From a virus: DNA of 64,000 bases. The notes under the pieces were generated by a model. That model did not search any database. It had not been told where the DNA came from and was given only the letters and a program-made list of their open reading frames with translations. Made by a program: the position numbers and the translations under genes. Below are positions 7,041-64,000 of this stretch, piece by piece; the stretch's first letter is position 1, and every line of letters starts with the position of its first letter. The stretch spans positions 32,001 to 96,000 of IMG/VR virus record IMGVR_UViG_3300031992_000005. One strand, 5' to 3'.

Positions 7041-7102
7041 AATTTTTCTATGTATTTAAAGAATTAACCCCAAGAGTTAATACCCCTGGGGTTCAAATGT
7101 TT

Positions 7103-8881: not shown

Positions 8882-8923
8882 TTTTCTTACAACTTGAATT
8901 TTTTAATTTAAAATTAAACATGA

Positions 8924-8952
8924 GTTATCATATATAAGATTTTAACGGGGTT
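8924..8952 (-). promoter_or_regulatory. promoter-like motif (recurrent consensus)
   Basis: The minus strand reads AACCCCGTTAAAATCTTATATATGATAAC, about 45 nt upstream of the ATG at 8881. Near-identical boxes occur at 22511 and 35636. Confidence 0.45.
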
Positions 8953-8968
8953 ATATATGCAAAAATGC

Positions 8969-8993
8969 AAATAAAAAGGGGGAATATCCCCCT
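8969..8993 (-). terminator. intrinsic terminator
   Basis: GGGGG-ATATT-CCCCC hairpin immediately after the stop of the 8997..9890 gene, followed on the minus strand by TTTTTAT. Confidence 0.65.
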
Positions 8994-8996
8994 ATT

Positions 8997-20781: not shown

Positions 20782-20991
20782 TTACGTATCTCTTGTAAGT
20801 ATTGTCCAGAATATGGCTACTATTAATACGATCATTACTATAGGCCATAGCCATAGCATGAAAAACTTCAAGATACGCTCTAAGAGTTTATTCTTGAAAG
20901 TAATTCTCCTAGTAAGATTATATTCCTGTAGGGTCATAAATCCTACTATCAAGTAGCAAATTACTATAAATGTAATTTCAATGTAACCCAT
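20782..20991 (-). CDS. small two-TM membrane protein (69 aa)
   Basis: Two hydrophobic helices. Overlaps the upstream gene by 14 nt. Confidence 0.55.
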   Translation of the reverse strand: MGYIEITFIVICYLIVGFMTLQEYNLTRRITFKNKLLERILKFFMLWLWPIVMIVLIVAIFWTILTRDT

Positions 20992-22471: not shown

Positions 22472-22510
22472 AAAAATATATTTATTAAATACATATTTAA
22501 GGGAATAATG

Positions 22511-22541
22511 TCCCCTTAAATTCTTATTTATATATGATAAC
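22511..22541 (+). promoter_or_regulatory. promoter-like motif on the strand opposite to both flanking genes
   Basis: TCCCCTTAAATTCTTATTTATATATGATAAC closely matches the boxes at 8924(-) and 35636(+). Confidence 0.45.
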
Positions 22542-22617
22542 GAATTTAATTGTCAGTTTCAGTTTCGTTTGCTTAATTTTAGTGGTGGCTTATTATCTAT
22601 CCAAGAATGGAAGGTAA
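22534..22617 (+). CDS. possible 27-aa hydrophobic micropeptide (or non-coding sRNA body)
   Basis: Hand translation gives MITNLIVSFSFVCLILVVAYYLSKNGR. The ATG lies inside the promoter-like box, so coding status is doubtful. Confidence 0.2.
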   Translation: MITNLIVSFSFVCLILVVAYYLSKNGR

Positions 22618-22634
22618 TAAGCCTTTCTTTTTTG
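22587..22634 (+). terminator. intrinsic terminator of the orphan plus-strand unit
   Basis: Perfect 9-bp stem GGCTTATTA/TAATAAGCC (22587-22595 with 22615-22623) followed by TTTCTTTTTT. Confidence 0.6.
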
Positions 22635-22698
22635 TTCAAAAAAAAAATAAGAAGGGAACAACCTAATCTCTAGGTCCCTCCCCTCCTTACTATAAACT

Positions 22699-23964
22699 TT
22701 AGGAAAATATCTTATTTTCTAACTGGATGCTTGATCCGATATTGTCTCCATTCCTACTCTGAATGAAAGTCAATAGGCCGAGCTTCTTTAATCCAAGCAA
22801 AACTACTGCTGCAAAATCCTTTGGATATACACTTTGAATTACTGAAGCAAGTCCCCCAGACAGTTCTGCATCTAAAACTCTCAGAGACAAATTGGCTGTC
22901 TTTTCTGCAAATAACAGTATTGCATTCATTATACCTAACCAAGCCACAATCTTATTGAAGTTAAAGGTTGGACTCAAGAATCTAAATTCTACAGTCTTAT
23001 TAATCCTATAACACAATAAGTTGACTAAGTTCATCCAGTAATATCTGGTAGGTATTCTCCATTTTGCCTCACGAGTAATATCACGTGGATGTGGTTGTGT
23101 GAAACTACCCATGTAATTCTTACCCACCAGGTATGCATATAGTGCATTGAAATTTGGCAGAGAATCTATACTAGGCAATTTCTTACAGTAATCCTTGCCA
23201 GTAGCCTTATACTCTGAACTTCTAAATGCCAGAGGTGGAAGAATAGTCGATAATTCGCATTCTAGCTTCTTACAAACTCGATAGAGATTATAGACTACTT
23301 CTGGTACCATAGGGTAACCCCCCAGGTGAACATGCAGAGAACATTCCTTATTAAAGATGGTATATTCATTCAGGGTATCTACTTGTTGACGAAGGAGATT
23401 AATTCCCTCATTTCCAGAAAGAACCACGGTTGAATATTCCAATCCACCGATAGATCCATCTCTTAGTGGAATAAGACCGTCTCTGAAACAGAGGTGTTCT
23501 GGAATATATCCACCACTTGTCTCAAACTCAAGACCAAAGGTATACTTGAGATATTTAGACAGTTCATAGAAGTCTATCTTTAATAGCTTCTGCTTATCCT
23601 TGAAAATGTCAAAGCTTTCTACAGCCTCATATTTTCTGACGAATCTCTGATAAGGATATCTACCATTTCCATAAGTGAATCTCTCACGAAGATAACCTTC
23701 CTGCGAAAAATCTACAAATTTACTGAAATAAACACCTTGTAAGTTACTGTAGAAAATCTTATCCTTCACCAGCTCATAGCAAGCATTTACTGTTCTGAGA
23801 GAATGTGGGTCTTTGTCGTAATCAATCAACATTAATTGAATGATAGATGCTCTATCCGCTACATATCCGTATATTATGTGGCCATCTTTTAAGAGATCAA
23901 CCACCACTGACATACATCTTCCTTTATTCTCTAGATTTCCAGTATAACTATCTACTACTTTCAT
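22699..23964 (-). CDS. glutamine-synthetase-fold amidoligase (Amidoligase_2-like)
   Basis: GLEFETSGG ... LRDGSIGGLEYSTVVLSG ... CSLHVHLGG ... EFRF follows the E.E / DGS..E / HVH pattern of predicted COOH-NH2 amidoligases. Sits in an operon with two GATases. Confidence 0.6.
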   Translation of the reverse strand: MKVVDSYTGNLENKGRCMSVVVDLLKDGHIIYGYVADRASIIQLMLIDYDKDPHSLRTVNACYELVKDKIFYSNLQGVYFSKFVDFSQEGYLRERFTYGNGRYPYQRFVRKYEAVESFDIFKDKQKLLKIDFYELSKYLKYTFGLEFETSGGYIPEHLCFRDGLIPLRDGSIGGLEYSTVVLSGNEGINLLRQQVDTLNEYTIFNKECSLHVHLGGYPMVPEVVYNLYRVCKKLECELSTILPPLAFRSSEYKATGKDYCKKLPSIDSLPNFNALYAYLVGKNYMGSFTQPHPRDITREAKWRIPTRYYWMNLVNLLCYRINKTVEFRFLSPTFNFNKIVAWLGIMNAILLFAEKTANLSLRVLDAELSGGLASVIQSVYPKDFAAVVLLGLKKLGLLTFIQSRNGDNIGSSIQLENKIFS

Positions 23965-23970
23965 GTTACT

Positions 23971-25392
23971 TTAACCTTTAAATAAGCGAGCAACAAGCGT
24001 TGCTATCTCTGATTTCGTAAATTGTTGATTTGCTTCAACGGCTTTAAATGGTTTACTATACTGTTGACCATAACAAGTCGTTACCAAAGAGCCGTCCCTA
24101 TAGGACTTGGAAAATCCTTCACCCAATCTCTGAATGTGCCCTGTAAAAGGTACCGTCTTAGATCCTTCAACAACTTGGTGAACAATATTCTTGTCATCTA
24201 TGTAGAAAGGCTCTAAGCTGAGATATCTAATCAAGTAGCAATTCTTGATTAAGAAATCCTTGACAGAGGCACAGGTCTTTTTTCTTTGCACGGAAACTTC
24301 TTCCTCGTGTGTTATATATTTCCAGCACCTCTTATTTAAGAGTGGAATTCCGTTATAAAACCAAACTGAATGGGTTGTACAGTTTTTATCTTTTCCAAGA
24401 TCTGCCTCAGGAATTACTCTACCATAAATTGTGAGGTTATACTTACCATTCATAGGTACACCCCTCAATTGATAGGTGAAGTTCTCCATTGCTCTTATGT
24501 AATTAGACTGATGATATACACCATCACTATCATAATAGCCATTATAGACATGAGTATTTCCAAAGGCAGTGGTACCAACACCATTAAAACCAACGGTAGG
24601 TACTCCTCCCCCACTATAATATGTGGCTTTATATGGTTTCGTTTGGATAGCTTTATCTCTACTATAAACTCCAAGATCCACTAATCCATCCTCAGCTGTA
24701 TAAGACATTAAGTGATTTCCGTCAATGGTATATACCTTTTGTCCTCTTCTAAGGGCATCGAGATATTTACCTATTGATGAGAATACAATCTCATCTTCCG
24801 AATCATCAAAAGTCATATACAAAGGTCTTTCTTCCTCAGGCTTTACCGAATATTCTGTTCTCTTAGATATTCCCTTGAAGAACAGACACTTAGGGCTATC
24901 TACTCGATAGTCAATGATTACAAATACACTACCGCCATTATATTCTGACAGTACGTCATATCCCTTGTAATAGAAGATCCTGGCCATGACTTGTGAATCA
25001 GTCATGTCATCTATCTTAATGTTTGGGATATACTTTTGAGCAAGTTCTTTGTAATTATAGATTGTACCGTTATGAAGAACTACAAATCTGATTCTTCCAG
25101 ACTTATCCTTCAAAACAACAGGCTGAGCAGTTCTTTCATTGATGGCACCAACAGATGCTTTTCTACAATGTCCAACTGCTATCGTAGACTCTTTTTTATT
25201 TTTCAGAATCTTACTTTCAGTGAAGAAGTCTTGAAACAGCTTATTATCTCTAACGCCGTATTCATATTCTCCATCGATGAAGATTCCACACGAATCTCCG
25301 CCTCGGGAATCATTGTTGACCCCGAGTACAGAGAATGTAGAATAGTCGAATGCCCGTTTTTTCCTATTTATTATTCCGAAAAGTCCGCACAT
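23971..25392 (-). CDS. class II (Ntn) glutamine amidotransferase domain protein with large C-terminal extension
   Basis: The N-terminus MCGLFGI has the Cys2 nucleophile, followed by NNDSRGGDSCGI, GHCRKAS and LHNGTIYN, typical of PurF/GlmS/AsnB-type GATase domains. Confidence 0.8.
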   Translation of the reverse strand: MCGLFGIINRKKRAFDYSTFSVLGVNNDSRGGDSCGIFIDGEYEYGVRDNKLFQDFFTESKILKNKKESTIAVGHCRKASVGAINERTAQPVVLKDKSGRIRFVVLHNGTIYNYKELAQKYIPNIKIDDMTDSQVMARIFYYKGYDVLSEYNGGSVFVIIDYRVDSPKCLFFKGISKRTEYSVKPEEERPLYMTFDDSEDEIVFSSIGKYLDALRRGQKVYTIDGNHLMSYTAEDGLVDLGVYSRDKAIQTKPYKATYYSGGGVPTVGFNGVGTTAFGNTHVYNGYYDSDGVYHQSNYIRAMENFTYQLRGVPMNGKYNLTIYGRVIPEADLGKDKNCTTHSVWFYNGIPLLNKRCWKYITHEEEVSVQRKKTCASVKDFLIKNCYLIRYLSLEPFYIDDKNIVHQVVEGSKTVPFTGHIQRLGEGFSKSYRDGSLVTTCYGQQYSKPFKAVEANQQFTKSEIATLVARLFKG

Positions 25393-52805: not shown

Positions 52806-53248
52806 CAGAAGAAGAAAAAGAAATATTGTTAAAAGACCTTTGTGGTAGATTACATTATAGAGTCCTTGTTAGTTACAAAGGCTTAATATACCCACTATTC
52901 AGTGTTGTCCCTACACAACATTTTCAAATCACGCTTGATAGTAGTAAATATTGTGGATTAGTGCATATCAGTCTTGATGATGATGGTGAAAAGCCAAAAC
53001 CTTATCTTCGTCCGATGTCAAGTATGACTGAGGAAGAGAAGAGGGAATATTTCTCATTTATTGGTGGTGTGAGACCATTTGACTGTGATTTTTCTGCATA
53101 TCCGATAGAGTACAAATTCGTTTATGAACATGATATAAATAGTTATATTGATTGGCTCAACAAACACCACTTTGACTATCGTGGATTAATTGAAAAAGGC
53201 CTCGCCATTGAAGCACTAGAAGGAATGTATAATTTAAAAATGGAATAA
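52802..53248 (+). CDS. family A small protein, array copy 13
   Basis: MTEEEKEILLKDLCGRLHYRVLV; PKPYLRPMSSMTEEE; IDWLNKHHFDYRGLIEKGLAIEALEGMYN. Confidence 0.85.
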   Translation: MTEEEKEILLKDLCGRLHYRVLVSYKGLIYPLFSVVPTQHFQITLDSSKYCGLVHISLDDDGEKPKPYLRPMSSMTEEEKREYFSFIGGVRPFDCDFSAYPIEYKFVYEHDINSYIDWLNKHHFDYRGLIEKGLAIEALEGMYNLKME

Positions 53249-53252
53249 AATT

Positions 53253-53405
53253 ATGACTGTTCAAATAAATAAACCAAGATGGAAAAATAAAGAGTGGACG
53301 TTTAATTTAATTCCATATTTGTCAATAACAAAAATCTCTAACTTAGTTATTGCAATTAACATTGGATGGCTATTTTGGGGAATAACAATTAGTAATAATT
53401 TCTAA
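53253..53405 (+). CDS. small membrane miniprotein (50 aa)
   Basis: Hand translation gives MTVQINKPRWKNKEWTFNLIPYLSITKISNLVIAINIGWLFWGITISNNF. Confidence 0.35.
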   Translation: MTVQINKPRWKNKEWTFNLIPYLSITKISNLVIAINIGWLFWGITISNNF

Positions 53406-53411
53406 ATAATC

Positions 53412-53567
53412 ATGGAACAGAAAAGCAAAGAATTACTATTAAACCTTCTTTCAGAATTAAATGAGAAAGGTTTATTATATATCTATGACAAGGATGAATC
53501 AAATTACTCAATGGATTGGGTATTTTTCGACGGAGAAAAATTATGCATAAAAATTGAGAAAATCTAG
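53412..53567 (+). CDS. hypothetical miniprotein (51 aa)
   Basis: Hand translation gives MEQKSKELLLNLLSELNEKGLLYIYDKDESNYSMDWVFFDGEKLCIKIEKI. Confidence 0.35.
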   Translation: MEQKSKELLLNLLSELNEKGLLYIYDKDESNYSMDWVFFDGEKLCIKIEKI

Positions 53568-53569
53568 TC

Positions 53570-53785
53570 ATGGAAGAATTATTATTCGATAACGTAATGG
53601 ACGGTGAATCATTGGTTAAAGATATATTAAATACTGATGGCGTAAGCTCTATCACGGACGATAATGGAAAATCGTATTGGTGGAATACCATTGATAAGAC
53701 AAGAAATTATCAAGTTAGGAAATATAAATATGATAGAGCACTCCAAGACTATTCAGTTATTTCATATAAAATAAAGGAATTGTAA
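53570..53785 (+). CDS. hypothetical protein (71 aa)
   Basis: Intact ORF. Confidence 0.45.
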   Translation: MEELLFDNVMDGESLVKDILNTDGVSSITDDNGKSYWWNTIDKTRNYQVRKYKYDRALQDYSVISYKIKEL

Positions 53786-53795
53786 TAATTATATT

Positions 53796-54140
53796 ATGAT
53801 ACCGGAAAGTAAAAGGCTATTAATCACAGACCTCTGTGCAAGACTACCTTATGATACTATAGTTAGTGTTGCAGAAGGAGGGATTGATGGGGTTCAATGG
53901 AATAAGTCAACATTAAATTTCTATCTACTTCATCAGATCGAAGAGGAAGATGGTTGGGAATTCATTAAACCCTATCTACGTCCAATGGATGATATGACAG
54001 AGGAAGAATCTGAAGAATTTTCCAATATGGAAATCGTAGGTTACTCTAACTATGATTGGCTAAATGCCCATCACTTTGACTATAGAGGCCTTATCGAAAA
54101 AGGACTTGCAATAGATTGTACTGGTTTAAATATTTACTAA
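53796..54140 (+). CDS. family A small protein, array copy 14
   Basis: SKRLLITDLCARLPYDTIV; IKPYLRPMDDMTEEE; YDWLNAHHFDYRGLIEKGLAIDCTGLNIY. Confidence 0.85.
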   Translation: MIPESKRLLITDLCARLPYDTIVSVAEGGIDGVQWNKSTLNFYLLHQIEEEDGWEFIKPYLRPMDDMTEEESEEFSNMEIVGYSNYDWLNAHHFDYRGLIEKGLAIDCTGLNIY

Positions 54141-54152
54141 AATTAAAAAACT

Positions 54153-54575
54153 ATGTCTAAAATTGGTACTTCAGCAGAACAATCTAAGAGACTCGTAGAA
54201 TTAGGAATTGATGTAAATACTGCTGATATGGCATTATGTGGTACACAATTATTAACAACAAGTTACGTATTAGCAAAAAAGAAATTTAGTAATGCTGGTG
54301 AAATCCCTATTGAACCTGCATGGAGTCTTTCTGCTTTGTTGGATTTGTTACCATGTAGCTTGTCTTTATATCCAGAAGCCACGGAAGAAGGAGTAAAAGA
54401 AGGTAAATATAGAAGCTCTGATTTAATTGCTTCAAAAGAAGGTTTTCTTAGAAAAAGATATGATGGCGATTATCAATACAGATACGATGGAATTAAAGTG
54501 GTAGGAGATTTTCAAAATCCTACTGATGCAGTATTTGAAATTATTTGTTGGTTAAAAGAAAATAATAAAATATGA
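54153..54575 (+). CDS. family E protein (paralogue of 45663..46064)
   Basis: See 45663..46064. Forms an ATGA junction to copy 15. Confidence 0.6.
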   Translation: MSKIGTSAEQSKRLVELGIDVNTADMALCGTQLLTTSYVLAKKKFSNAGEIPIEPAWSLSALLDLLPCSLSLYPEATEEGVKEGKYRSSDLIASKEGFLRKRYDGDYQYRYDGIKVVGDFQNPTDAVFEIICWLKENNKI

Positions 54576-54976
54576 CACAAGAAGGAAAATTTCTTTTATT
54601 GAAAGACCTAAATGCAAGGTTGCCTTATGGAGTTTATGTAGAGCATACAACCACAAAAATAAGAGGCAAATTAAAGGGTATGATGTTTGAACATATCTAC
54701 AATGACACAGATTCTATTCAAGATATAAATGCTTGGGCAATGTTTTTCGGGGATGAATATGTGGATGCTACATATTTTAGGCCAATCTTACGTCCAATGT
54801 CAAGTATGACAGAGGAAGAAAGAAAGGAGTATAAGCATCTTGTAGCATTTAGTGGTAGTCCTGATGGAGCAACAAATTTTACAGACTGGCTAAATGCTAA
54901 TCACTTCGACTATAGAGGTCTTATTGAAAAGGGTTTAGCTATTGAAGTAACAGAAAAGAATAATCCATATAAATAG
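54572..54976 (+). CDS. family A small protein, array copy 15
   Basis: MTQEGKFLLLKDLNARLPYGVYV; FRPILRPMSSMTEEE; TDWLNANHFDYRGLIEKGLAIEVTEKNNPYK. Confidence 0.85.
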   Translation: MTQEGKFLLLKDLNARLPYGVYVEHTTTKIRGKLKGMMFEHIYNDTDSIQDINAWAMFFGDEYVDATYFRPILRPMSSMTEEERKEYKHLVAFSGSPDGATNFTDWLNANHFDYRGLIEKGLAIEVTEKNNPYK

Positions 54977-55021
54977 AAGGTTGTAAATTCCTTTTAGAAG
55001 CTATAAAACACTAATTTATAT

Positions 55022-55219
55022 ATGAAAAGAATATTACATTTTATTAGTTTTCCGTTTAGGATAATAGCGGAATATATAATAGCTTTTATACTATTTATGG
55101 TATACTTGTTACTTATCCTATCAAGTATTATTTACGAAATGGTTTATAATTGTTATGACGACATTAAAAGATATTATTCAATACTTAAAGAAAAAATCTG
55201 CAGTAAAATGCCAACCTAG
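55022..55219 (+). CDS. small membrane protein (65 aa)
   Basis: Long hydrophobic helix (IIAEYIIAFILFMVYLLLILSSIIY). Confidence 0.45.
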   Translation: MKRILHFISFPFRIIAEYIIAFILFMVYLLLILSSIIYEMVYNCYDDIKRYYSILKEKICSKMPT

Positions 55220-55321
55220 TATGGATGGCAGTAGAGAACAGTACTACGAAGGTAAAAAAGATGCTTACCTAGACTGTGCGGAAATTCTTGAAAAGTATTT
55301 ATCTCAATCATCAGATAAACT

Positions 55322-55669
55322 ATGAATACTATAAAAATATTCGTCAAGAATTTATTTGGGTTACCGGTCACTAGAGTTGATGTCTTGAAACGGGCTAGAG
55401 ACTATAAATGGACTAGTGGTCTATGTATTGCCATCAAATGTGCTTTATGGGACTTTAATATTCCTACCGAACCTAAAAATGTTGTCTCGAAGTTGTATTT
55501 CCCAGAGTTCAATCGAAAAAGTGCACTAGTATTTGGCGCAGATCCTTACAGTGTATTTTGGTGGGAAGTACACAATTGGTCTACAGGTAGGGAAAGATAT
55601 TTAAATTACCTGATAAACTGTTATAAAGATGATAAAATTAATTTAAGAAAATTAGCATATGATGAATGA
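55322..55669 (+). CDS. family C protein, copy 1
   Basis: LPVTRVDVLKRA ... GLCIAI ... FPEF ... FGAD ... FWWE..NWSTGRERYLNYLINCYKDDKINLRKL. Confidence 0.7.
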   Translation: MNTIKIFVKNLFGLPVTRVDVLKRARDYKWTSGLCIAIKCALWDFNIPTEPKNVVSKLYFPEFNRKSALVFGADPYSVFWWEVHNWSTGRERYLNYLINCYKDDKINLRKLAYDE

Positions 55670-56063
55670 TTGGAAATTAAAAATAAAGGGAGCTATAAAG
55701 AAGTTTATTTTGAAGATTATTCAAGTATATTTCTTTTATATACCCAAACCCGTAACGAGAGTTGAAGTTTTAAGGCGTGTAAAATCACTTAAAACTGGCA
55801 AAGGACTATGTGGAGGTTTACTCTATGTAATGGGGCAGGAATTTGATTTAGATATTTCTATATCTACTGCATTTCCACTATTCACTAATGAAAATGCACG
55901 AAAATTTGGAGCAAAACCAGTAGAAGAATTCATGTCGCGCTATGAATACTGGTGGAAAATGGGAAAATGGAATACTGGTAGAGAAGATTTTCTAGATTGG
56001 CTGATAGAACAGTATAAAGATGATACGACAAATCTAAGAAAATTAAAATACCATGAAGATTAA
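55659..56063 (+). CDS. family C protein, copy 2
   Basis: PVTRVEVLRRV ... GLCGGL ... FGAKP ... YWWK.GKWNTGREDFLDWLIEQYKDDTTNLRKL. Confidence 0.7.
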   Translation: MMNDWKLKIKGAIKKFILKIIQVYFFYIPKPVTRVEVLRRVKSLKTGKGLCGGLLYVMGQEFDLDISISTAFPLFTNENARKFGAKPVEEFMSRYEYWWKMGKWNTGREDFLDWLIEQYKDDTTNLRKLKYHED

Positions 56064-56433
56064 AGATTACCTAATAGTAGCACTAATACTGGCACTTTCT
56101 ACTCTAGCACTATTAATTATAGGATTTTTTATAGGAATTCCCGTATATCTTTTTCTAACTTGGAATATTTTTATAGGATGTGTCTTATCCTCTATTTACC
56201 TAATAGTCTTTTTTGAATTATTCTTTGGTTCTAAGGAAGAATATGTTGAATTTGAAGTAGGAGATGTATTGAAATACTTGGAAGAAGATGCTAGAACATG
56301 GCAAGGAAAAAACTATGTAATAGTAAAAAATATTGGTGAATTAGATGGGAAAAAGATCCTAGAATTTGAAGATGGTACTTGGGAATATGCACATAAAGCT
56401 AATCACAATTATTATAAAATAGGAAGAAAATGA
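56053..56433 (+). CDS. membrane-anchored protein (126 aa)
   Basis: Two N-terminal TM helices followed by a soluble domain. Confidence 0.55.
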   Translation: MKIKDYLIVALILALSTLALLIIGFFIGIPVYLFLTWNIFIGCVLSSIYLIVFFELFFGSKEEYVEFEVGDVLKYLEEDARTWQGKNYVIVKNIGELDGKKILEFEDGTWEYAHKANHNYYKIGRK

Positions 56434-56936
56434 ATAAGAAAAAAGTACTATTTGCCGACTTAGATGGAACATTAATCGAGACGGCAACAGGAAAAACATT
56501 TCCTCTTGGTATCTGGGATATGAAATTTAAGTTTGATGTCCTAGATGCTATAAAAAAGTATAACTTCGAAGGTTTAATAATCGTCACTAATCAAGGTGGC
56601 ATTGAAAAAGGATTAGTTAATGAGAAACACTTTGTAAAAGCAAAGATGGCTTATGTAACTAAATCTTTGGAAGAATATTTACATATTCCAGTCAAATTTG
56701 TTTACTGTGCGTCCAATGACAAGGATTGTGGGCATAGAAAACCTAATACCGGTATGTTAGAAAACGCTTATTGGAAGTTCATTATTAATCAATGGAAAAT
56801 GAATATCAATAAAAGTGATATGCTTATGATAGGTGATGCTAGTGGTAAACCTGGCCAATTCTCTGATTCAGATAAAAAGACCGCAGAGAATTATGGCATT
56901 GACTATATGGATATCGAAGATTTTAAGGCTCTCTAG
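56430..56936 (+). CDS. HAD-IIIA phosphatase, polynucleotide 3'-phosphatase (PNKP/GmhB)-like
   Basis: Motif I FADLDGTLIET, then ATGKTFP..IWD (as in PNKP-type 3'-phosphatases), motif II IIVTNQGGI, K in HRKPNTGM, motif IV MIGDASG...SDSD. Confidence 0.7.
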   Translation: MNKKKVLFADLDGTLIETATGKTFPLGIWDMKFKFDVLDAIKKYNFEGLIIVTNQGGIEKGLVNEKHFVKAKMAYVTKSLEEYLHIPVKFVYCASNDKDCGHRKPNTGMLENAYWKFIINQWKMNINKSDMLMIGDASGKPGQFSDSDKKTAENYGIDYMDIEDFKAL

Positions 56937-56960
56937 AAATAGAGAGCTTTTTATTTTTTC
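56928..56960 (+). terminator. intrinsic terminator
   Basis: Perfect GCTCTCTA-GAAA-TAGAGAGC hairpin followed by TTTTTATTTTTT. It overlaps the stop codon. Confidence 0.75.
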
Positions 56961-57018
56961 AAAGGCCTAATTCTTTAATTATATAAAGATTTATTAATTA
57001 ATTTAAAACAGAAAATTT

Positions 57019-57402
57019 ATGTTAGAAATGTATTTACTTAGCAGAATTGGAGCAATTCATACTGCATTATGTTGGTTAACAATTGGATTATTCCTTGCCT
57101 GGATAATCTGTTGGTTCATGATCGCTCTTCGGGAAGACTTCTCCGATGAACATGTCTTTGATGAAGATCAGAGAGCTAGATTAAAGAAAAACGCAAAAAA
57201 GTTACTGTACTCACTTGTGGTTTCTTTTTTGATACTAGTGGTAACACCAACAGAGAAAGATGCATACTTGATTTATGGTCTTGGTGGTACCATAGATTAC
57301 ATACAATCAAACGATAAGGCAAAACAGATTCCAGACAAATGTATAGAAGCATTAAATACTTGGCTAGATAAAATACAACCAGAAGAAACGTCAGATAAAT
57401 AA
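57019..57402 (+). CDS. membrane protein (127 aa)
   Basis: Two TM helices. Confidence 0.55.
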   Translation: MLEMYLLSRIGAIHTALCWLTIGLFLAWIICWFMIALREDFSDEHVFDEDQRARLKKNAKKLLYSLVVSFLILVVTPTEKDAYLIYGLGGTIDYIQSNDKAKQIPDKCIEALNTWLDKIQPEETSDK

Positions 57403-57406
57403 AGCT

Positions 57407-57670
57407 ATGGACAGGAAGAAAAGATTTGAAGAAAAATACGGAAGCAGTGAAGTGAAATTACATCACAGCGTTCTAACTATTCATGACTGCCGCTCAGACC
57501 CATTTAGTTCCGGAGAAAATGGATACCTAGAGAAAGTCCGGGTTAGAAACGGTAAGTTTGAATTCTACCACGATTGGTGGAGTTATGGCTGGATCACTGA
57601 AGATGAGGTCCTGGATAAATATCCGAACGCTTATTGCCAAGTGAATCTAGAAGTCAATAGCTTATTATGA
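57407..57670 (+). CDS. hypothetical protein (87 aa)
   Basis: Intact ORF. Confidence 0.5.
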   Translation: MDRKKRFEEKYGSSEVKLHHSVLTIHDCRSDPFSSGENGYLEKVRVRNGKFEFYHDWWSYGWITEDEVLDKYPNAYCQVNLEVNSLL

Positions 57671-57939
57671 GACGAATAATGCTTATAACACTCTTAATTA
57701 TACTCTTCCTAATACTGTTTCACTATGCAGTTAGAAAAGAGTATAATAATATTGAAGATTATAGAGGTTATACAGTATTAGATAAGTTAGCTACAGACGA
57801 CGCCTATATGTTAGCTATAAAAGTAGACACACCAATCCACCGTGAGTTTATCGGATACGAATATGAAATTATTATGCCTTGTGCAATAGTTTCAAAAACG
57901 GATTTCGATAAGTACAATATAGGAGATACTATCAGATGA
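57667..57939 (+). CDS. N-terminally anchored small protein (90 aa)
   Basis: ATGA junction and an N-terminal TM helix (MLITLLIILFLILF). Confidence 0.5.
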   Translation: MRRIMLITLLIILFLILFHYAVRKEYNNIEDYRGYTVLDKLATDDAYMLAIKVDTPIHREFIGYEYEIIMPCAIVSKTDFDKYNIGDTIR

Positions 57940-58331
57940 AAATAAAAATAGAAACAGAAGGAGTAGTGATAGGTTCAAGGACTTTGCCAGAATTTAAGTT
58001 TCAAGTTCTGAACTTTATGAGTATGTTATGGGACAATATTACTAACCCTGATTGGGGAAAATCTAGTGATCCCGATCCCCATTATATTCGTAGCTATACT
58101 TATGCAAATTTTCACGTCGCAATTAATAATCTAAAATTTGAATTAGGGCGATTGGAAAAAGAAACCGGTATCCCTGCCTGTGAAGAACAGGAAATGATAA
58201 CTAGGATGAAATGTTTAGGTGGCGGTAACGGTAGAACTGAAGAGATTTGGACTAAACTCCTAAAAGATCTTACAAAAAAGTACAACTTAAAATACAAATT
58301 AAATGGTAACCGAAGTACAAATAGTAGATAA
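57936..58331 (+). CDS. hypothetical protein (131 aa)
   Basis: ATGA junction. No motif recognised. Confidence 0.5.
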   Translation: MKIKIETEGVVIGSRTLPEFKFQVLNFMSMLWDNITNPDWGKSSDPDPHYIRSYTYANFHVAINNLKFELGRLEKETGIPACEEQEMITRMKCLGGGNGRTEEIWTKLLKDLTKKYNLKYKLNGNRSTNSR

Positions 58332-59064
58332 CACTAAATCGCCAATTGGTTATTTATCCACCTTGGAGAACTTCAAAAATGGTACGGTATATAAGTTCAA
58401 TAAAGGGGTAAACATTATAGTTGGTGAAAATGGAAGTGGTAAATCTACACTACTAAATCTTATTAGATACTACCTCTTAGTAGGAGAAAAAGAGTGTGAT
58501 AAAGGATTATATAACTCCAATATCAATCGATTGTACGGTTTAGATAGTTTATTCTCTGATGGAGTTAGTGTATTCGCTGACTATAAGAAAAATGTATTCA
58601 GACTTTGTCATGAAGATGAGACATCAATAGATAACACTCCCGATTTTGATTCTTTCGGAACTTATTTCGCACAGAAACAATCATCTACTGGTGAAAGCGT
58701 TAATATAGCACTGAGATCTCTTATTCGGAGAATGTACAGTAAAGATGCTAAGCTGTATTATGATTTTTCATTAAAAGAGATGTATCCTAAGTACACCGAA
58801 TATATTGAGAAACATAGGATTGACGATGACGAGGAGTGGACAATCTTAATGGATGAACCTGACAGAAACCTTGATATCAATAATATCAAAGAAGTTCAGG
58901 GGATTCTTTCCTTTCACAAGGAACAGACTCAGGTCATCGCTGTTATACACAATCCATTAATGATCTATTCGTTATCCAAGTGCAAGGACATTAACTTCAT
59001 AGAGTTAACGGATGGATATATTAATAATGTATGTAGAATCATTAACGAGATTGTAAGGGAATGA
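58303..59064 (+). CDS. minimal ABC-type (AAA_21-like) ATPase
   Basis: Walker A GENGSGKSTLLN, signature-like QSSTGES, Walker B TILMDEPDRNLD, H-loop-like AVIHNP. At 253 aa it has no fused effector domain. Confidence 0.65.
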   Translation: MVTEVQIVDNTKSPIGYLSTLENFKNGTVYKFNKGVNIIVGENGSGKSTLLNLIRYYLLVGEKECDKGLYNSNINRLYGLDSLFSDGVSVFADYKKNVFRLCHEDETSIDNTPDFDSFGTYFAQKQSSTGESVNIALRSLIRRMYSKDAKLYYDFSLKEMYPKYTEYIEKHRIDDDEEWTILMDEPDRNLDINNIKEVQGILSFHKEQTQVIAVIHNPLMIYSLSKCKDINFIELTDGYINNVCRIINEIVRE

Positions 59065-59435
59065 ATACAGATACAGAGGCTTATCATCAATCTGAGCAAT
59101 ATGATGGTATTGAAGGAAGTTATTATGCACATACCACTCTCTACTCTAGAGTAAGAAGGAGAAAATTTATTGCCGAGAAAGAAAAGCGTTTTTCAAAAAA
59201 AGATAAGGAGAAATTTGTTATTACGCAAACTCCTAGAAAAAATACTGCGGTGGTAAAAACTCTCTACTTAGTTGATAGGAGTAAGACAAGAAGATTTTGG
59301 TGGTCACACGATGCCTATTTTGCAAAGAAATTTGATAGTGAAAGTGAGGCAATGAATAAAGCATTGAAATATAAATATAATAATTGTAGGGTAATTAAAA
59401 TAGAAAATATCATCAATGGGAAAAATAGCAGATAG
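59061..59435 (+). CDS. hypothetical basic protein (124 aa)
   Basis: ATGA junction. No motif recognised. Confidence 0.5.
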   Translation: MNTDTEAYHQSEQYDGIEGSYYAHTTLYSRVRRRKFIAEKEKRFSKKDKEKFVITQTPRKNTAVVKTLYLVDRSKTRRFWWSHDAYFAKKFDSESEAMNKALKYKYNNCRVIKIENIINGKNSR

Positions 59436-59601
59436 CCTAGAAAAATATTTCAAAGAAACTCCCCCGGAACAGCTTGACAAGGACTGGGAAGAGATAAAGG
59501 ATCTTAATAATATTGGTCCAGACGCAATAGAATATATAAACAAATATAAGAATCATGTGGGTAAAAGTAGACTATTCGGAAGAGGCCAAGAAAAATCCTA
59601 A
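59416..59601 (+). CDS. hypothetical protein (61 aa)
   Basis: Intact ORF overlapping both neighbours. Confidence 0.4.
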   Translation: MGKIADSLEKYFKETPPEQLDKDWEEIKDLNNIGPDAIEYINKYKNHVGKSRLFGRGQEKS

Positions 59602-59755
59602 GCCAAATATGGCAGGAGAATGGGCTATTTACACTAAAAGGCATTGGTGGAATCATTGGGTAGAACGCCAGACCTATGCTAGCTTAGATCTGTGTGAAAA
59701 AGAAGCTGAAAAGATAGTCAAATTTCCAAAATACTATTTCAAATGGGGCAAATAG
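59555..59755 (+). CDS. hypothetical W-rich protein (66 aa)
   Basis: Intact ORF. Confidence 0.4.
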   Translation: MWVKVDYSEEAKKNPKPNMAGEWAIYTKRHWWNHWVERQTYASLDLCEKEAEKIVKFPKYYFKWGK

Positions 59756-60093
59756 ATTATACTACAGTAGAACATATTATGATAGGTCCATTAATTAGCG
59801 ATCTTCTTAAACTTCCAGTAACAAGGGTGGACTTATTAAGGAGAGCAAGAAAGAAAGTCAAAGCTCGCCTTGGATTATATACAATAATACAAGGCACAAT
59901 AAACGAGTATGGCTTACAGGTATCCGCGAAAAAATGTTTTCCAAAGCTTACTATTGAAAATGCCAAGGAATTCGGTGCAGATAAAACATTTACCTGGTGG
60001 ACTGAAGAAGATTGGAATACTGGTAGAAAAGAATTCCTAGACTGGCTGATAGAACAATATAAGAACGATAAAGAAAACTTAAGAGATGGATAA
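59743..60093 (+). CDS. family C protein, copy 3
   Basis: LPVTRVDLLRRA ... FPKL ... FGADK.FTWWTEEDWNTGRKEFLDWLIEQYKNDKENLR. Confidence 0.7.
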   Translation: MGQIDYTTVEHIMIGPLISDLLKLPVTRVDLLRRARKKVKARLGLYTIIQGTINEYGLQVSAKKCFPKLTIENAKEFGADKTFTWWTEEDWNTGRKEFLDWLIEQYKNDKENLRDG

Positions 60094-60235
60094 TATTACG
60101 CATACTGAAGATTATTTTTGGGAATATACATGTACCAGACCCTCCGATTATTATAATGAGAGGTGCTCAACCTGTTCTGCAAGAAATCCCAATCATAATT
60201 GTGAATATCTAAGAATAAAATATACAATAAAATGA
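60086..60235 (+). CDS. Cys-containing miniprotein (49 aa)
   Basis: Hand translation gives MDNITHTEDYFWEYTCTRPSDYYNERCSTCSARNPNHNCEYLRIKYTIK. Overlapping start and stop (ATGA) with both neighbours. Confidence 0.4.
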   Translation: MDNITHTEDYFWEYTCTRPSDYYNERCSTCSARNPNHNCEYLRIKYTIK

Positions 60236-60570
60236 ATATAGTAAAACTACTTTTTATCAGGTTATTCAGGTTACCTGTAAGAAGAGAAAGTGTATTGACA
60301 CTTACAAAGAAGATTCGAACAGAACAATCCAATATAGGGTTATGTTCTGCAATAAGTTCAGCACTAGCTAGTTATGGTATATGGAGAGATCGTACACTTG
60401 AAGAATATTTTCCAGAATTCACTTTTGAAAATGCAAGAGAAAAATTCAAAGCTGATGGAACTAAAGAATTCTTTTGGTGGATAAATTACGACGATCCTAA
60501 TAGGATGGAATTCTTAGATTGGCTTATCAAACAGTACAAAAACGATAATACGAACTTAAGAAAACTTTAA
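60232..60570 (+). CDS. family C protein, copy 4
   Basis: LPVRRESVLTLT ... GLCSAI ... FPEF ... FFWWINYDDPNRMEFLDWLIKQYKNDNTNLRKL. Confidence 0.7.
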   Translation: MNIVKLLFIRLFRLPVRRESVLTLTKKIRTEQSNIGLCSAISSALASYGIWRDRTLEEYFPEFTFENAREKFKADGTKEFFWWINYDDPNRMEFLDWLIKQYKNDNTNLRKL

Positions 60571-60575
60571 AACGA

Positions 60576-60611
60576 AAAGGGTATCTTTTATAGATACCCT
60601 TTCCTTTTTTG
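60576..60611 (+). terminator. intrinsic terminator
   Basis: AAGGGTATCT ... AGATACCCTT hairpin (at least 9 bp) followed by TCCTTTTTT. Confidence 0.7.
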
Positions 60612-60668
60612 GTGTAATAAACTCCTATTAATTAACTTAAATCCCTTATAACTAAATATATAAATCAC

Positions 60669-60869
60669 ATGGATTATAAAAAAGAATACTTAGCTGCTCG
60701 TAAAAGAGCAAAAGAAATTTTTACATATTATTGTGATGATAGAGAGCAGTTGGGAAAAATATTATATATATTTCCTGACATAGAAGGTGAAACGGAAGAA
60801 GAGGAGAAAGATGCAGAATCTTATCCATCCTTTGATGATTCACAAGGAACACCAATTATAAAAACATGA
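60669..60869 (+). CDS. hypothetical acidic protein (66 aa)
   Basis: Intact ORF after a terminator. Confidence 0.45.
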   Translation: MDYKKEYLAARKRAKEIFTYYCDDREQLGKILYIFPDIEGETEEEEKDAESYPSFDDSQGTPIIKT

Positions 60870-60873
60870 TATT

Positions 60874-61194
60874 ATGAAACTAAAGACTACAGAAATCATT
60901 ATTTATTATGATGGACCGCAGGTAGTAGTAGCAGAGGATGAAAACAAACAGCTTTACATAAACACATTGTATGAAATTAATAGCCTGGGAGATTTTCTCT
61001 ACTTAACTGCGAAAACAACAGAAGAAAACCTAGAAGAATTTAAAACAGGAAAAATTGATCTTAGATCACTTTACAAGGCTCCTTATTATGTAAGCACTGA
61101 TGAATTCGGCGACGTATTTAATGCAAGAGAAATTAAGGAATCTGAAGTGAAAAGCTCAATGCTTCCAGACAAAAACTTTTATTTAGACAGATGA
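60874..61194 (+). CDS. hypothetical protein (106 aa)
   Basis: Intact ORF. Confidence 0.5.
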   Translation: MKLKTTEIIIYYDGPQVVVAEDENKQLYINTLYEINSLGDFLYLTAKTTEENLEEFKTGKIDLRSLYKAPYYVSTDEFGDVFNAREIKESEVKSSMLPDKNFYLDR

Positions 61195-62111
61195 AAAGAT
61201 TCTTTTATAGACTTTGGACAAAGTTTATCTTAACACTCAAAACACTCTTTGTTGATGGAGGTTTTGTAGAAGTTTATCATCCAACACAAGACACCCCAAA
61301 AATGAAATTAAGACAATTACCTCATGAAGAAATTATGAAGTATGACAAAAATGGGGATGGAATAGTTGATGAAAAAGACGTAACTGCACTAGTAAACGAT
61401 ATTCTTCTGGGGAATTATGACCCTGGATTAGATCTTAACGGAGATGGAGAAACCGACATATCCGATGTAGTGGAATTTGTAAATATAATCCTAGAAACGG
61501 AAAAAGAAAGAGCATTCTCTTTTGAGTTACTTGGTTATGATTTTACACATCAGCCTGAGAATTGTATTTACTATACAACCTACAATAAAAAGCCGTGTGA
61601 TATTTTTATCATAGAAAACTTCGGCGCAATAGATCTAGTAGAAAATCGTTATTATGAAGGACATGATTTTGGAAAATTGATCTTTAGCGGACCTATTACC
61701 AGAATCCCTGATTATGCATTCTATTTTTGTACAGAGCTCACTAGTATTTCCATACCTAGAAAGGTGATCGATATAGGAGCTCATGCATTTGCAAACTGTA
61801 CAAGACTAGACGCAATCGTTCTCGGAGAAGATGTTAAAAGAATTAATATCGCCGTAAATACTTCAGAAGGAGGAAGCTTTGCTTTTGATGACTGTATTAA
61901 TCTAAATCACATAATTTCATTAGCACAAGAAGCTCCTGCAATAGACTGGAGTACCTTCAGGGATATGGGAAAACCTGGAGAAAGAACATTATATGTAAGA
62001 AAAAAGAGTACAGGATATCAGGAAAACTGGCTTAAAGTAGGAACTGGTATGGCTGTATACCTAGGTAATTATAAATTTAATCTAGCATATCTAGGGGACT
62101 ACGAATACTAA
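61191..62111 (+). CDS. dockerin-repeat plus BspA-type LRR protein
   Basis: Two EF-hand-like dockerin segments (DKNGDGIVDEKDVTALVNDILLG and DLNGDGETDISDVVEFVNIILE), then LRR units (FYFCTELTSISIPRKVIDIGAHAFANCTRLDAIVLG). Confidence 0.7.
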   Translation: MKRFFYRLWTKFILTLKTLFVDGGFVEVYHPTQDTPKMKLRQLPHEEIMKYDKNGDGIVDEKDVTALVNDILLGNYDPGLDLNGDGETDISDVVEFVNIILETEKERAFSFELLGYDFTHQPENCIYYTTYNKKPCDIFIIENFGAIDLVENRYYEGHDFGKLIFSGPITRIPDYAFYFCTELTSISIPRKVIDIGAHAFANCTRLDAIVLGEDVKRINIAVNTSEGGSFAFDDCINLNHIISLAQEAPAIDWSTFRDMGKPGERTLYVRKKSTGYQENWLKVGTGMAVYLGNYKFNLAYLGDYEY

Positions 62112-62115
62112 CTCT

Positions 62116-62152
62116 GGGATGCCTATCTTAATGGTAGGCACCCTTCTTTTTT
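62116..62152 (+). terminator. intrinsic terminator
   Basis: GGGATGCCTA ... TAGGCACCC hairpin (one bulge) followed by TTCTTTTTT. Confidence 0.6.
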
Positions 62153-62178
62153 CCCAAATATGGTTTTTTCTTTTTTCT

Positions 62179-62205
62179 TCCACCTATTACCTTATACTTG
62201 TAATA
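62179..62205 (+). promoter_or_regulatory. promoter-like motif
   Basis: TCCACCTATTACCTTATACTTGTAATA, about 15 nt upstream of the ATG at 62221. Confidence 0.4.
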
Positions 62206-62220
62206 TAAATTTTTATTTTT

Positions 62221-63828
62221 ATGGCTAAAAAGATAAAAGAAGAAGTTATTGAATTTCTAAAACCAAGAGATGCTGTAAGAAAAAGATACGGCATGTATAT
62301 TTCAACAAACGAAAATGCCAATGTGATCTTTCGAGAGATCATTGACAATTCATGCGATGAAATATCAGCTGGATATGGAGATACAGTATTAATTAGCAAT
62401 AACTTAAATGGTTTTTGTTTTGTAGCTGATAATGGTAGAGGTATACCTATCAGCATGTCTAAAGATAAACCAGGAGTAACTCAAGCTTATCTTAGTATAA
62501 GTGAATTACACAGTGGATCTAAATTTGATTCAACTGATGTAAGTAGAGTTGGTATGAATGGCGTAGGCTCAGCATGTTGTAATTTCTTATCTGATCAATA
62601 TTGGCTACTGTCTAGGATCACTGAGGATAATTATTATAAATCTATTCCCGCAGTTAAAGAACTATGGGAAAACAGTGGACCTAGAAGTAAAAGAGATTTG
62701 TTCTATGTGGCATTCTGTCACAAAGGTGAATTAGTTACAGAAGGAGCTGGTAGATTAAAGGACATAGAAAAAGCTATCTTCAAGGATATTAGAGGCTATA
62801 CTTCTATACCTGAGGGACAAAGTACTATTGTTCTTTTTAAACCGGACCCAGAGATCTTTGAATCTACTAATGCAGAAGTTCCTATCAGAAACTTACAGTA
62901 TTTTCTTATGATACAAGAGAAGTTTTATAAGAGAAAAATTAATATTGTAGTTGATGGACAGCTAGTGAATAATACGTTCAAGCCATTTAAATTTGAATTA
63001 ATTAGAATGGTTGAGCCAAAGGATACTAGTTTCAATAAACAAGTTGGTATCTATATGACATTTGAAGCTGACCCTGGATTAGGACAGAAAACTGAAATAG
63101 GTAGTGTTAATGGCCTTGATGTAAATCAGGGACAACATATACAAATTGCAGAATCTGTATATAAAGCTGCATTGAAGGATTATTATAAAATAAAGCATGA
63201 CTGCCTCTTAAATGGTCTTCAACTTTGTGTTATAATATTAGCTGGTGAGGTTGTATTCGATAGCCAAACTAAAACTAGATTAAAAAGTATTAGTAAGGTA
63301 AAATCATCGGACTTCGTTGACGTTGTTAAGGATATCGAAAAAATATTCAGACAAAACCCTGAATATTGGGATCTTCATGTGGAGAAACTGGATAAACTTG
63401 CTGAATCAATGAAGAGCATTGGTGCAGCAGATAAGGCACAGAAATTTATTGATGCTAATAGCGGAATAAATCAATATAGAAGTAGAGCTGATCTACCAAA
63501 AGGATTTGCTGATGCTACTAGCAGAGATAGAAGTGAATGTGAAATTCTAATTTGTGAAGGCTTATCAGCTGGTGGGTCCTTGATTGCAGGAAGAAAAGAT
63601 ACAAGGTATCAGGCGATACTCTCGCTTCGCGGAAAAATATTAAATGTAACTGATAAGGGTGTTGATCGGGCCCTTGAATCTAAAGTTATTAATGATATCT
63701 TCAAGGTTATCGGACTTGGACTCGATGTGAATTGGGTAGGAGCTGGATTAAACTACGAAGAGGCACACGAGGTTATCAAACGTAAGTCTAGGTACAACAA
63801 AATTATTATAGCAAGTGATGCGGATTAG
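62221..63828 (+). CDS. type II DNA topoisomerase ATPase/Toprim subunit (GyrB/T4 gp39-like), 5' exon or N-terminal fragment
   Basis: GHKL motifs EIIDNSCDE, DNGRGIP and GMNGVGSACCN. Toprim motifs ICEGLSAGGS and LSLRGKILNV. The ORF stops at IIIASDAD-TAG, inside the conserved DxDxDG acidic motif. Confidence 0.85.
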   Translation: MAKKIKEEVIEFLKPRDAVRKRYGMYISTNENANVIFREIIDNSCDEISAGYGDTVLISNNLNGFCFVADNGRGIPISMSKDKPGVTQAYLSISELHSGSKFDSTDVSRVGMNGVGSACCNFLSDQYWLLSRITEDNYYKSIPAVKELWENSGPRSKRDLFYVAFCHKGELVTEGAGRLKDIEKAIFKDIRGYTSIPEGQSTIVLFKPDPEIFESTNAEVPIRNLQYFLMIQEKFYKRKINIVVDGQLVNNTFKPFKFELIRMVEPKDTSFNKQVGIYMTFEADPGLGQKTEIGSVNGLDVNQGQHIQIAESVYKAALKDYYKIKHDCLLNGLQLCVIILAGEVVFDSQTKTRLKSISKVKSSDFVDVVKDIEKIFRQNPEYWDLHVEKLDKLAESMKSIGAADKAQKFIDANSGINQYRSRADLPKGFADATSRDRSECEILICEGLSAGGSLIAGRKDTRYQAILSLRGKILNVTDKGVDRALESKVINDIFKVIGLGLDVNWVGAGLNYEEAHEVIKRKSRYNKIIIASDAD

Positions 63829-64000
63829 AATTTATCTGAGTCCGTGAGATTTAGAAATAATTCTCAAAAGAATCGTATTGCTGCGGGGAACTCCTGTTAG
63901 GCTAATAGTACTAGGGATAGTAACAATCTATTAGATAGGGACAATCCGCTCGTTATAAAGATTAGTTAAAAAACAATAAAAAATATGAATAATATAAAAC
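63826..64000 (+). mobile_element. probable group I intron (5' part) with internal ORF starting at 63985; runs off the window
   Basis: There is an in-frame stop right at the break. Exon end GCGGAU (63820-63825) can pair with GUCCGU (63840-63845), giving a P1-like helix with a U:G pair at the putative splice site. A GC-richer structured stretch follows, then ATGAATAAT at 63985. Confidence 0.5.

Follow-up and report, generated by a model that had tools for sequence, protein, structure and literature searches.

A probable mobile group I intron of the IA2 type in the Toprim DxD motif of a phage topoisomerase II gene

Towards the end of a 64,000-nucleotide stretch of viral DNA (positions 32,001 to 96,000 of IMG/VR record IMGVR_UViG_3300031992_000005; the whole stretch is called the window below), the gene for the large subunit of a type II topoisomerase comes to a stop inside its Toprim domain, which raises the question of what interrupts it and whether the two sides of the interruption could still yield one protein. 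The open reading frame (ORF) concerned, at 62221..63828 (+) and 535 aa long, matches the Pfam families HATPase_c, DNA_gyraseB and positions 1-66 of the 96 of Toprim. It contains the motifs ICEGLSAGGS and LRGKILNV and terminates at IIIASDAD-TAG, and on these points the sequence and Pfam agree with the initial annotation of the locus. Judged by its sequence, it is the N-terminal part of a GyrB/gp39(+gp60)-like topoisomerase II large subunit, and its product aligns from residue 1 with uninterrupted homologues of 670 aa. The letters that follow, 63826-64000, very probably form the 5' portion of a group I intron, mobile and self-splicing and of the IA2 type, inserted in the DxD motif of the Toprim domain. 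The initial annotation had left two options, an intron bearing a homing endonuclease or a split-gene insertion; the intron is favoured by what follows, and the ORF inside it has no detectable nuclease domain.

Extension of the sequence downstream, which the initial annotation had proposed as a check, was provided by a metagenome contig of 107.7 kb (ENA ERZ27257202, here L001; window coordinate = L001 coordinate + 52220) that matches the final 10.9 kb of the window, 53132-64000, at every base. It contains the rest of the Toprim domain and the C-terminal part, codon-exact (ADGDAIFNEIIYLF...KGLGSLSPETGEVYD...NFTD), in the following arrangement.

62221..63825, + strand (L001 10001-11605): exon 1, 535 codons, ending in ...IIIASDAD.
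63826..64000, + strand: first 175 nt of intron 1 (L001 11606-12473, 868 nt), the remaining 693 nt lying beyond the window end.
63985..64000, + strand: first 16 nt (five codons and one base) of ORF161, the 161-aa ORF of intron 1 (L001 11765-12250).
L001 12474-12696: exon 2, 223 nt, encoding ADGDAIF...KG.
L001 12697-14235: intron 2, 1539 nt, interrupting the Leu codon of KG-L-G; it follows intron 1 after 223 nt and lies outside the window.
L001 12851-14038: ORF of intron 2, in its P6 loop, 395 aa with two HNH_3 domains (2.2e-18).
L001 14236-14420 and stop codon: exon 3.

Joined in silico, the three exons encode 671 aa (...IIIASDAD|ADGDAIFNEIIYLF...RWKG|LGSLSPETGEVYDSFYNP...NFTD), a product for which the alignment with uninterrupted homologues (667-682 aa) extends from one terminus to the other (about 75% identity to P0003). 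The gene for the gp52-like DNA_topoisoIV subunit, which is intact, follows directly after exon 3 from L001 14423. Automatic gene calls break the topoisomerase gene into pieces of 535 aa and 82 aa and leave the rest uncalled. At 63985, where a new ORF had been noticed, an ATG does open a frame that runs off the window, and in L001 this frame is completed as ORF161. Homologues of the topoisomerase gene are located on contigs of 300-420 kb, and the host of the intron is a large gut or rumen phage; among GenBank phages, a search for close relatives of the gene gave a best protein identity of 32% and one short DNA match.

Intron 1 splits the metal-binding motif in phase 0, its codons being divided as Asp-Ala-Asp | Ala-Asp-Gly. 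An allele that is 97% identical (P0001, contig L003) is without the intron and reads GAT GCC GAT CCG GAC GGA through the site (GATGCCGAT|CCGGAC at the insertion point), where the window allele reads GAT GCG GAT | intron 1 | GCA GAT GGA; a further allele, 98% identical (P0002, contig L006), also lacks it. The intron-less L003 allele and the in-frame spliced product together fix the junction. In keeping with the U|...G| rule, the base before intron 1 is a U paired with G and the last base of the intron is G, and this terminal guanosine (omega-G) stands directly before exon 2 (...AACAACAUG|GCAGAUGGA); the predicted ligated-exon junction reads ...GATGCGGAT + GCAGATGGAG. At the site of intron 2, homologues read KGLGSLSPETGEVY, and the only U|...G| solution is GGAU|UAGG...ACUG|UAGGAAGU (in longer form GGAU|UAGGAAAU...AACUG|UAGGAAGU), with AGGAU/GUCCU as P1 and ...GGAAAGGAT + TAGGAAGTC as the predicted ligated-exon junction. 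Two other junctions for intron 2 were tried and rejected, namely KGLGN|PETGEVY, which the homologue alignment contradicts, and ...SPSM-C-EVY with GUAUGU/ACAUAC as P1, that hairpin being P2.

The elements of intron 1 that fall within the window, with the exon bases that pair to them, are these.

63820..63825, + strand: GCGGAU, 5' strand of P1; U63825 is the 5' splice-site U of the U.G pair.
63826..63828, + strand: in-frame UAG, the first triplet of intron 1, terminating translation of unspliced RNA.
63834..63838, + strand: AUCUG, candidate P10 guide, able to pair with bases 2-6 of exon 2 (CAGAU).
63840..63845, + strand: GUCCGU, internal guide sequence and 3' strand of P1, pairing with 63820-63825, the terminal pair being U.G.
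63846..63865, + strand: P2 hairpin, GAGAUUU-AGAAAU-AAUUCUC.
63873..63879, + strand: UCGUAUU, 5' strand of P3, with its partner GAUACGA at L001 12359-12365, outside the window.
63883..63949, + strand: P4-P5-P5a-P5b domain, GCGGG...UCCGC around UCCU/GGGA, CUAAUAG/CUAUUAG and UACUA/UAGUA.
63952..63967, + strand: GUUAUAAAGAUUAGUU, 5' strand of a long P6 stem, with its partner AACUAAUCUUUAUAAC past the stop of the intron ORF, outside the window.

The pairing of GCGGAU with GUCCGU, which the initial annotation had pointed out as a P1-like helix with a U:G pair, holds, and among related introns P1 covaries with the exon (CGGAU/GUCCG, CAGAU/GUCUG, AGGAU/GUCCU, GGGAU/GUCCC and UGGAU/GUCCA). Most related introns begin with TAG or TAA at the position equivalent to that of the UAG. 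The P2 loop AGAAAU is common to most of 25 related copies, and the stem around it varies with compensation (for example GUAUGU/ACAUAC in L001 versus GUAUAU/AUAUAC in L003). P3 occurs in four compensated family variants, TCGTATT/GATACGA, TTCTATT/GATAGAA, TTGCAC/GTGCAA and ATCCTATT/GATAGGAT, and the P6 stem, out of which the ORF of intron 1 is looped, has a compensated version in intron 2 (GUUGAUGAGAUUAGUU/AACUAAUCUCAUCAAC). That a GC-richer non-coding stretch follows the stop codon is true of the core part, 63873-63951 (44.3%), but not of the whole non-coding segment 63826-63984, which at 32.7% lies below the 34.5% of the window.

Homology and covariation support the assignment of this intervening RNA, on its sequence, to the group I introns and within them to subgroup IA2, the type of T4 td and nrdB, which makes up more than half of viral group I introns. 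The td and nrdB introns are experimentally self-splicing, td carrying I-TevI and nrdB carrying I-TevIII. A covariance model built from four local 3' cores only (P7, P7.1, P7.2 and P8), from which td and nrdB had been excluded, matched the T4 td core with 41.4 bits (E 1.6e-7) and the T4 nrdB core with 18.9 bits (E 0.014, filters off). The same model found 28 more copies, all within the topoisomerase gene of related IMG/VR jumbo-phage contigs, and no further copy of the intron within the 64-kb window, filters on or off. Aligned with td and nrdB, the 3' core has in common with them the blocks AACGACUAU (P7), a small P7.1 hairpin, GUAGGGU...ACUCGAAA (P7.2), P3', P8 and AUAUAGUCU (P7'), and the shared strings run in the order AACGACUAU...GUAGGGU...ACUCGAAA...AUAGUCU. 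With blastn, the 3' core hit 657 phage records; T4-like and Staphylococcus phages are among them, as are AR9/PBS1, whose genomes match at 12 places each.

Over 30 distinct sequences of the 3' core, 99.6% of the cells are paired and 19 of 24 pairs have changes on both sides, figures that are biased somewhat towards structure by the model-fitted alignment; none of 500 shuffles did as well, and slid alignments pair 30-46%. P7.1 and P7.2, which lie between P7 and P3', are paired in 100% and 99.5% of cells, with 3 and 6 pairs respectively changed on both sides. For the 5' domain that lies in the window (P4, P5, P5a and P5b), 25 copies were aligned with plain MAFFT; here 95.6% of the cells are paired and 9 pairs have double changes; again 0 of 500 shuffles were as good, and the slid controls gave 37-48%. 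The minimum free energy fold of 63816-63952 likewise gives the P4-P5-P5a-P5b helices (z = -2.15). Introns 1 and 2 have nearly identical cores, and the ribozyme parts of intron 2 are 76-83% identical to those of intron 1.

A pathway from this gene to an intact enzyme can be envisioned as follows. The precursor messenger RNA would fold so that the exon bases GCGGAU pair with the guide GUCCGU, exogenous guanosine would attack after U63825, and the freed exon 1 would in turn attack just past the intron's last base, the G at L001 12473, joining GAU to GCAGAUGGA. Intron 2, in the Leu codon of KGLG, would be removed likewise, leaving a continuous subunit of 671 aa, while the in-frame UAG at the start of intron 1 would halt ribosomes on unspliced RNA. 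Intron 1 itself probably arrived from a diverged phage by homing or recombination, and about 200 nt of exon sequence to either side would have come with it.

Several points weigh against this reading. Splicing, along with catalysis by intron 1 and a part for ORF161 in mobility, is something that we infer and did not observe. The 3' half of intron 1 lies outside the window and was taken from L001, which is identical over 10.9 kb but may be another isolate. An alternative one base over at both splice sites, GAUU|...AUGG|CAGAU, also keeps the frame; it would place Ser, not Ala, at residue 536 and a U-A pair in P1. The ORF of intron 1 is without a recognisable endonuclease domain, so homing of this copy driven by a homing endonuclease gene is unsupported by its sequence. 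Finally, the Rfam group I model RF00028 gave no match at E<=10, whether run on the complete intron and locus, the entire window or its tail. In the positive control, however, the authentic T4 td intron reached 40.3 bits, below the gathering score of 50, and for that reason the negative is given little weight. The RF00028 test is uninformative for ORF-bearing IA2 phage introns, and the Rfam scan recommended in the initial annotation would have returned a false negative.

One could instead suppose that the gene is split without any RNA splicing, as T4 genes 39 and 60 are, so that three pieces, 535 aa and roughly 80 and 60 aa long, are translated separately and assemble non-covalently, the inserts being free-standing endonuclease cassettes. 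In T4-type phages topoisomerase II is indeed split, and an HNH element, MobA, is inserted in this part of the Toprim domain (bioRxiv 10.1101/2022.08.31.505936), and gene callers place an ORF start ATG exactly at the 3' end of intron 1 (M-ADGDAIF, L001 12471). No Shine-Dalgarno-like sequence precedes that ATG, however, and the fragments have no C- or N-terminal extension peptides, the breaks being codon-exact against uninterrupted homologues. Moreover, inserts of 316-325 nt with no ORF occur at the same sites, which means that the insert is not an endonuclease cassette, and the insert contains a conserved, covarying ribozyme core homologous to that of T4 td. Taken together, these features make a split gene of that kind extremely unlikely. 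A decayed intron that no longer splices, in a topoisomerase gene that has become a pseudogene, is very unlikely too. It would fit an intron ORF with no known nuclease domain, and in three relatives (L018, L025 and L032) exon 2 is preceded by A, not G, under a canonical 5' site. In intron 1, by contrast, no core helix is disrupted, both the U.G pair and the terminal G are in place and the exon frame is open; the exon protein is 97% identical to the intron-less allele, with changes that cluster at the site and are not spread, and the adjoining gp52-like subunit gene is intact.

The chance that the interruption is false, through an assembly chimera or a reassigned TAG, is close to negligible. TAG is recoded in some gut phages, and here the frame stays open through TAG codons to a TAA near 63966. 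Standard-code gene calls nevertheless tile the locus normally, and read-through of the TAG was rejected as a candidate: the extension peptide has no Toprim similarity, and the true continuation lies 868 nt downstream. As for a chimera, the same 535-aa product is on record in four contigs, two of which were read and show no difference across the junction of exon 1 and intron 1. One of these is L001 and the other, L002 (Logan SRR9006730), lies with its whole length of 3,076 bases inside the window and is identical throughout; an identical junction in contigs from two sources, ENA and Logan, rules out an assembly artefact.

Returning to a group I intron as the preferred explanation, the alleles with and without it bear on how it moves. 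The gene is near-identical in L003 and L006, which lack intron 1, and mismatches cluster within about 200 nt on either side of the site. Between the intron-plus window allele and the intron-minus L003, 73 of 110 mismatches fall within the 400 nt around the insertion point, a divergence of about 20% there as against 1-2% elsewhere, which is the pattern that would be expected from co-conversion during homing. The ribozyme also appears in a more distant host gene. An ORF-less intron in L014 is 89-93% identical to the ribozyme of intron 1, while its host exon 1 is only 65% and its 3' exon 83% identical, and this one ribozyme lineage occupies sites 6 nt apart (L014 7609-7931 versus window 63826 onward). 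Similarly, the KG|LG intron lineage of L001 (12697 onward) is found at DxDxD|G in L015 (7618-7938). The exon ending GGAU, shared by all the sites of these L014, L001 and L015 lineages, hints at transposition directed by the guide sequence, in the manner of reverse splicing, or at slipped recombination in the GAT-GCN-GAT repeat.

The intron ORF was to be placed among the GIY-YIG, HNH or LAGLIDADG families, as the initial annotation had proposed; ORF161 belongs to none of these and is an orphan. It had no match in Pfam, PHROGs, NCBIfam or a PDB profile search, six relatives were found in a word search of 5.8 billion proteins and two matches in a full HMMER scan of 1.84 billion representatives. 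Its AlphaFold2 model is of low confidence (predicted local distance difference test score 59.8) and had no match in the PDB by Foldseek (best E 2.4), and hhalign found it unrelated to the HNH proteins of the intron family (probability 0.7%). Of the relatives, P0124 is encoded within the P6 loop of an intron of this family, one that interrupts the topoisomerase gene of a different phage at D|AD; this placement ties ORF161 to the intron and its site. ORF161 is a candidate for a new type of homing endonuclease. A bolder proposal, speculative and in our view rather unlikely, is that ORF161 founds a very narrow family of intron-borne site-specific nucleases (or some other mobility or maturase factor) for the Toprim DxD site, and that the intron family colonises new ...GGAU/...AGAU sites by reverse splicing and not by endonuclease homing only. 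If this were true, reverse splicing would explain the single lineage 6 nt apart in L001 and L014, the lineage of intron 2 at DxDxD|G in L015, and the two introns of L011 around a micro-exon that are described below.

A family-wide map of 24 IMG/VR loci and four others places introns at four sites, D|AD (residues 533/534), DAD|A (535/536, the site in the window), DxDxD|G (537/538, in L015) and KG|LG (610), and an intein at residue 445, directly before CEGLSAGGS. These insertions occur in every combination, including none (L007, L010, L024 and L028). The introns of the family are either ORF-less (about 316-325 nt) or carry a double-HNH protein of about 390 aa, a PD-(D/E)xK-like protein of 320 aa, or ORF161. 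By Pfam, no Hint/intein splicing domain is present in the topoisomerase gene of the window. The allele P0002 has a mini-intein (L006 7336-7770) directly before CEGLSAGGS, and inteins stand at the same position in L016-L023 and L029-L032; they are either mini (about 139-145 aa) or large (about 460 aa, in L021, L023, L029 and L030).

In L011 (IMG/VR 3300007186_000001, 326 kb), two complete introns follow one another in tandem at 7603-9255, one at D|AD and one at DAD|A, with only 5-6 nt of micro-exon between them, (G)CAGAT, at L011 7929-7934; the frame works both ways, as GAU|...A|GCAGAU or as GAUU|...G|CAGAU. The relatives with A before exon 2 belong to a D|AD intron lineage (L018 at about 9551, L025 at about 9150 and L032 at about 8340), and if both of their sites are shifted by one base the terminal G comes back and the U.G pair is lost. 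In a cultured phage, Vibrio phage 150E35-1 (GenBank OX241562.1), positions 144288-146633 match a type IIA topoisomerase large subunit in two pieces; the annotation of the stretch that parts them lists a 'toprim domain-containing protein, partial' and hypothetical proteins, and this may be another interrupted topoisomerase II gene.

Other genes of the window were noted in passing. Directly upstream of the topoisomerase gene, a gene for a BspA-type leucine-rich-repeat protein (61191-62111, +) codes at its N-terminal end for a weak match to Dockerin_1 that stays below threshold (E 0.00097; 19.7 bits, where the cut-off is 22.9), with a DxNGDG-type repeat in the matching region (DKNGDGIVDEKD...DLNGDGETDISD). 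Two adjacent paralogous small ORFs of 116 and 112 aa, at 59743-60093 and 60232-60570 (+), have the common C-terminal motif ...EFLDWLI(E/K)QYKND..NLR. A phage-encoded class I Glu/Gln-tRNA synthetase is found at 12147-13727 (-; tRNA-synt_1c, 1.1e-92, and an anticodon-binding domain), and no transfer RNA genes were found across the whole 64 kb. A cluster at 20978-25392 (-) comprises an RlaP-like nucleotidyltransferase, an amidoligase_2 protein and a class II glutamine amidotransferase, and 5250-8881 holds the pair VWA (CoxE-like) and AAA_5.

Set beside the introns of T4 td and nrdB, intron 1 has the same build: P1 with U.G, P2, a P3/P7 pseudoknot, P4-P6 with the ORF coming out of P6, P7.1/P7.2, P9 with a GNRA-type loop, a terminal G, and the core strings AACGACUAUCCC, GUAGGGU, ACUCGAAA and AUAUAGUCU. 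In both cases a stop codon comes right after the 5' splice site, and the intron is lodged in a conserved gene of DNA metabolism in a large virulent phage. Unlike those introns, intron 1 resides in the Toprim DxD of a topoisomerase II and not in thymidylate synthase or ribonucleotide reductase, its P5 is extended (P5a/P5b) and its P7.2 longer, its ORF is a 161-aa orphan and not GIY-YIG or HNH, and two introns of one family lie in one gene only 223 nt apart. Several related group I introns per gene, with or without endonuclease ORFs, are also known from Staphylococcus phage Twort (orf142) and the Bacillus phages SPO1 and AR9, in different genes. To our knowledge, three sites within 12 nt, and tandem introns around a micro-exon as in L011, are unusual among the multi-intron genes of phages.

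Intron-rich jumbo phages of the gut have already been published. Jug (jumbo gut) phages are reported to have about 18 group I introns per genome, and metatranscriptome reads confirm splicing for 37 of 76 predicted introns; the split genes named there are terL, nrdD and DNA polymerase, DNA topoisomerase IV figuring only as a conserved core gene (Sci Adv 2026, PMC12880540). We found no mention of an interrupted topoisomerase in the text of that paper, its supplements or its preprint, and did not find the Toprim DxD site reported for introns. The phages of the present family resemble the Jug and crAss-like phages in being uncultivated gut phages of several hundred kb, with group I introns in many genes, stand-alone HNH, PD-(D/E)xK and GIY-YIG endonucleases, and inteins. 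For the annotation of such huge gut phages, the fragmentation of this essential topoisomerase gene by gene callers and the misses of Rfam matter.

The closest parallel in position is T4 itself, and here the initial annotation was right on both counts. The T4 record has gp60 running to ...MTDADHDG, followed by an annotated 50-nt bypass and then LGSIYPSLL, and the Toprim region is indeed a known hot spot, the MobA split and the bypass lying directly after DADHDG. The 50-nt gap is three codons from the site of intron 1 and one codon from that of the L015 intron. The two systems have in common the enzyme and its Toprim metal-binding region, HNH-driven mobility, and presence or absence among near-identical phages. 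Features of a MobA-type split-and-bypass cassette, namely a free-standing HNH gene between two ORFs, C- and N-terminal tails encoded by the element, and a 50-nt bypass whose GGA codons for take-off and landing match, were looked for at the window locus and not found, the exon ends abutting exactly, with no extra tails and with ORF-less inserts at the same sites. MobA gives two polypeptides with added tails and needs ribosomal bypass, whereas here removal at the RNA level is predicted, with the protein left intact. The DxD of the type II topoisomerase Toprim domain would thereby join the active-site motifs colonised by phage group I introns, and in one phage clade this gene has been struck at five places, by the intein at CEGLSA and by introns at D|AD, DAD|A, DxDxD|G and KG|LG. 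The T4 lineage handled an insertion in the same few codons in an altogether different way, by the MobA split and ribosomal bypass, and the two would together be a good example of unrelated selfish elements converging on one conserved site.

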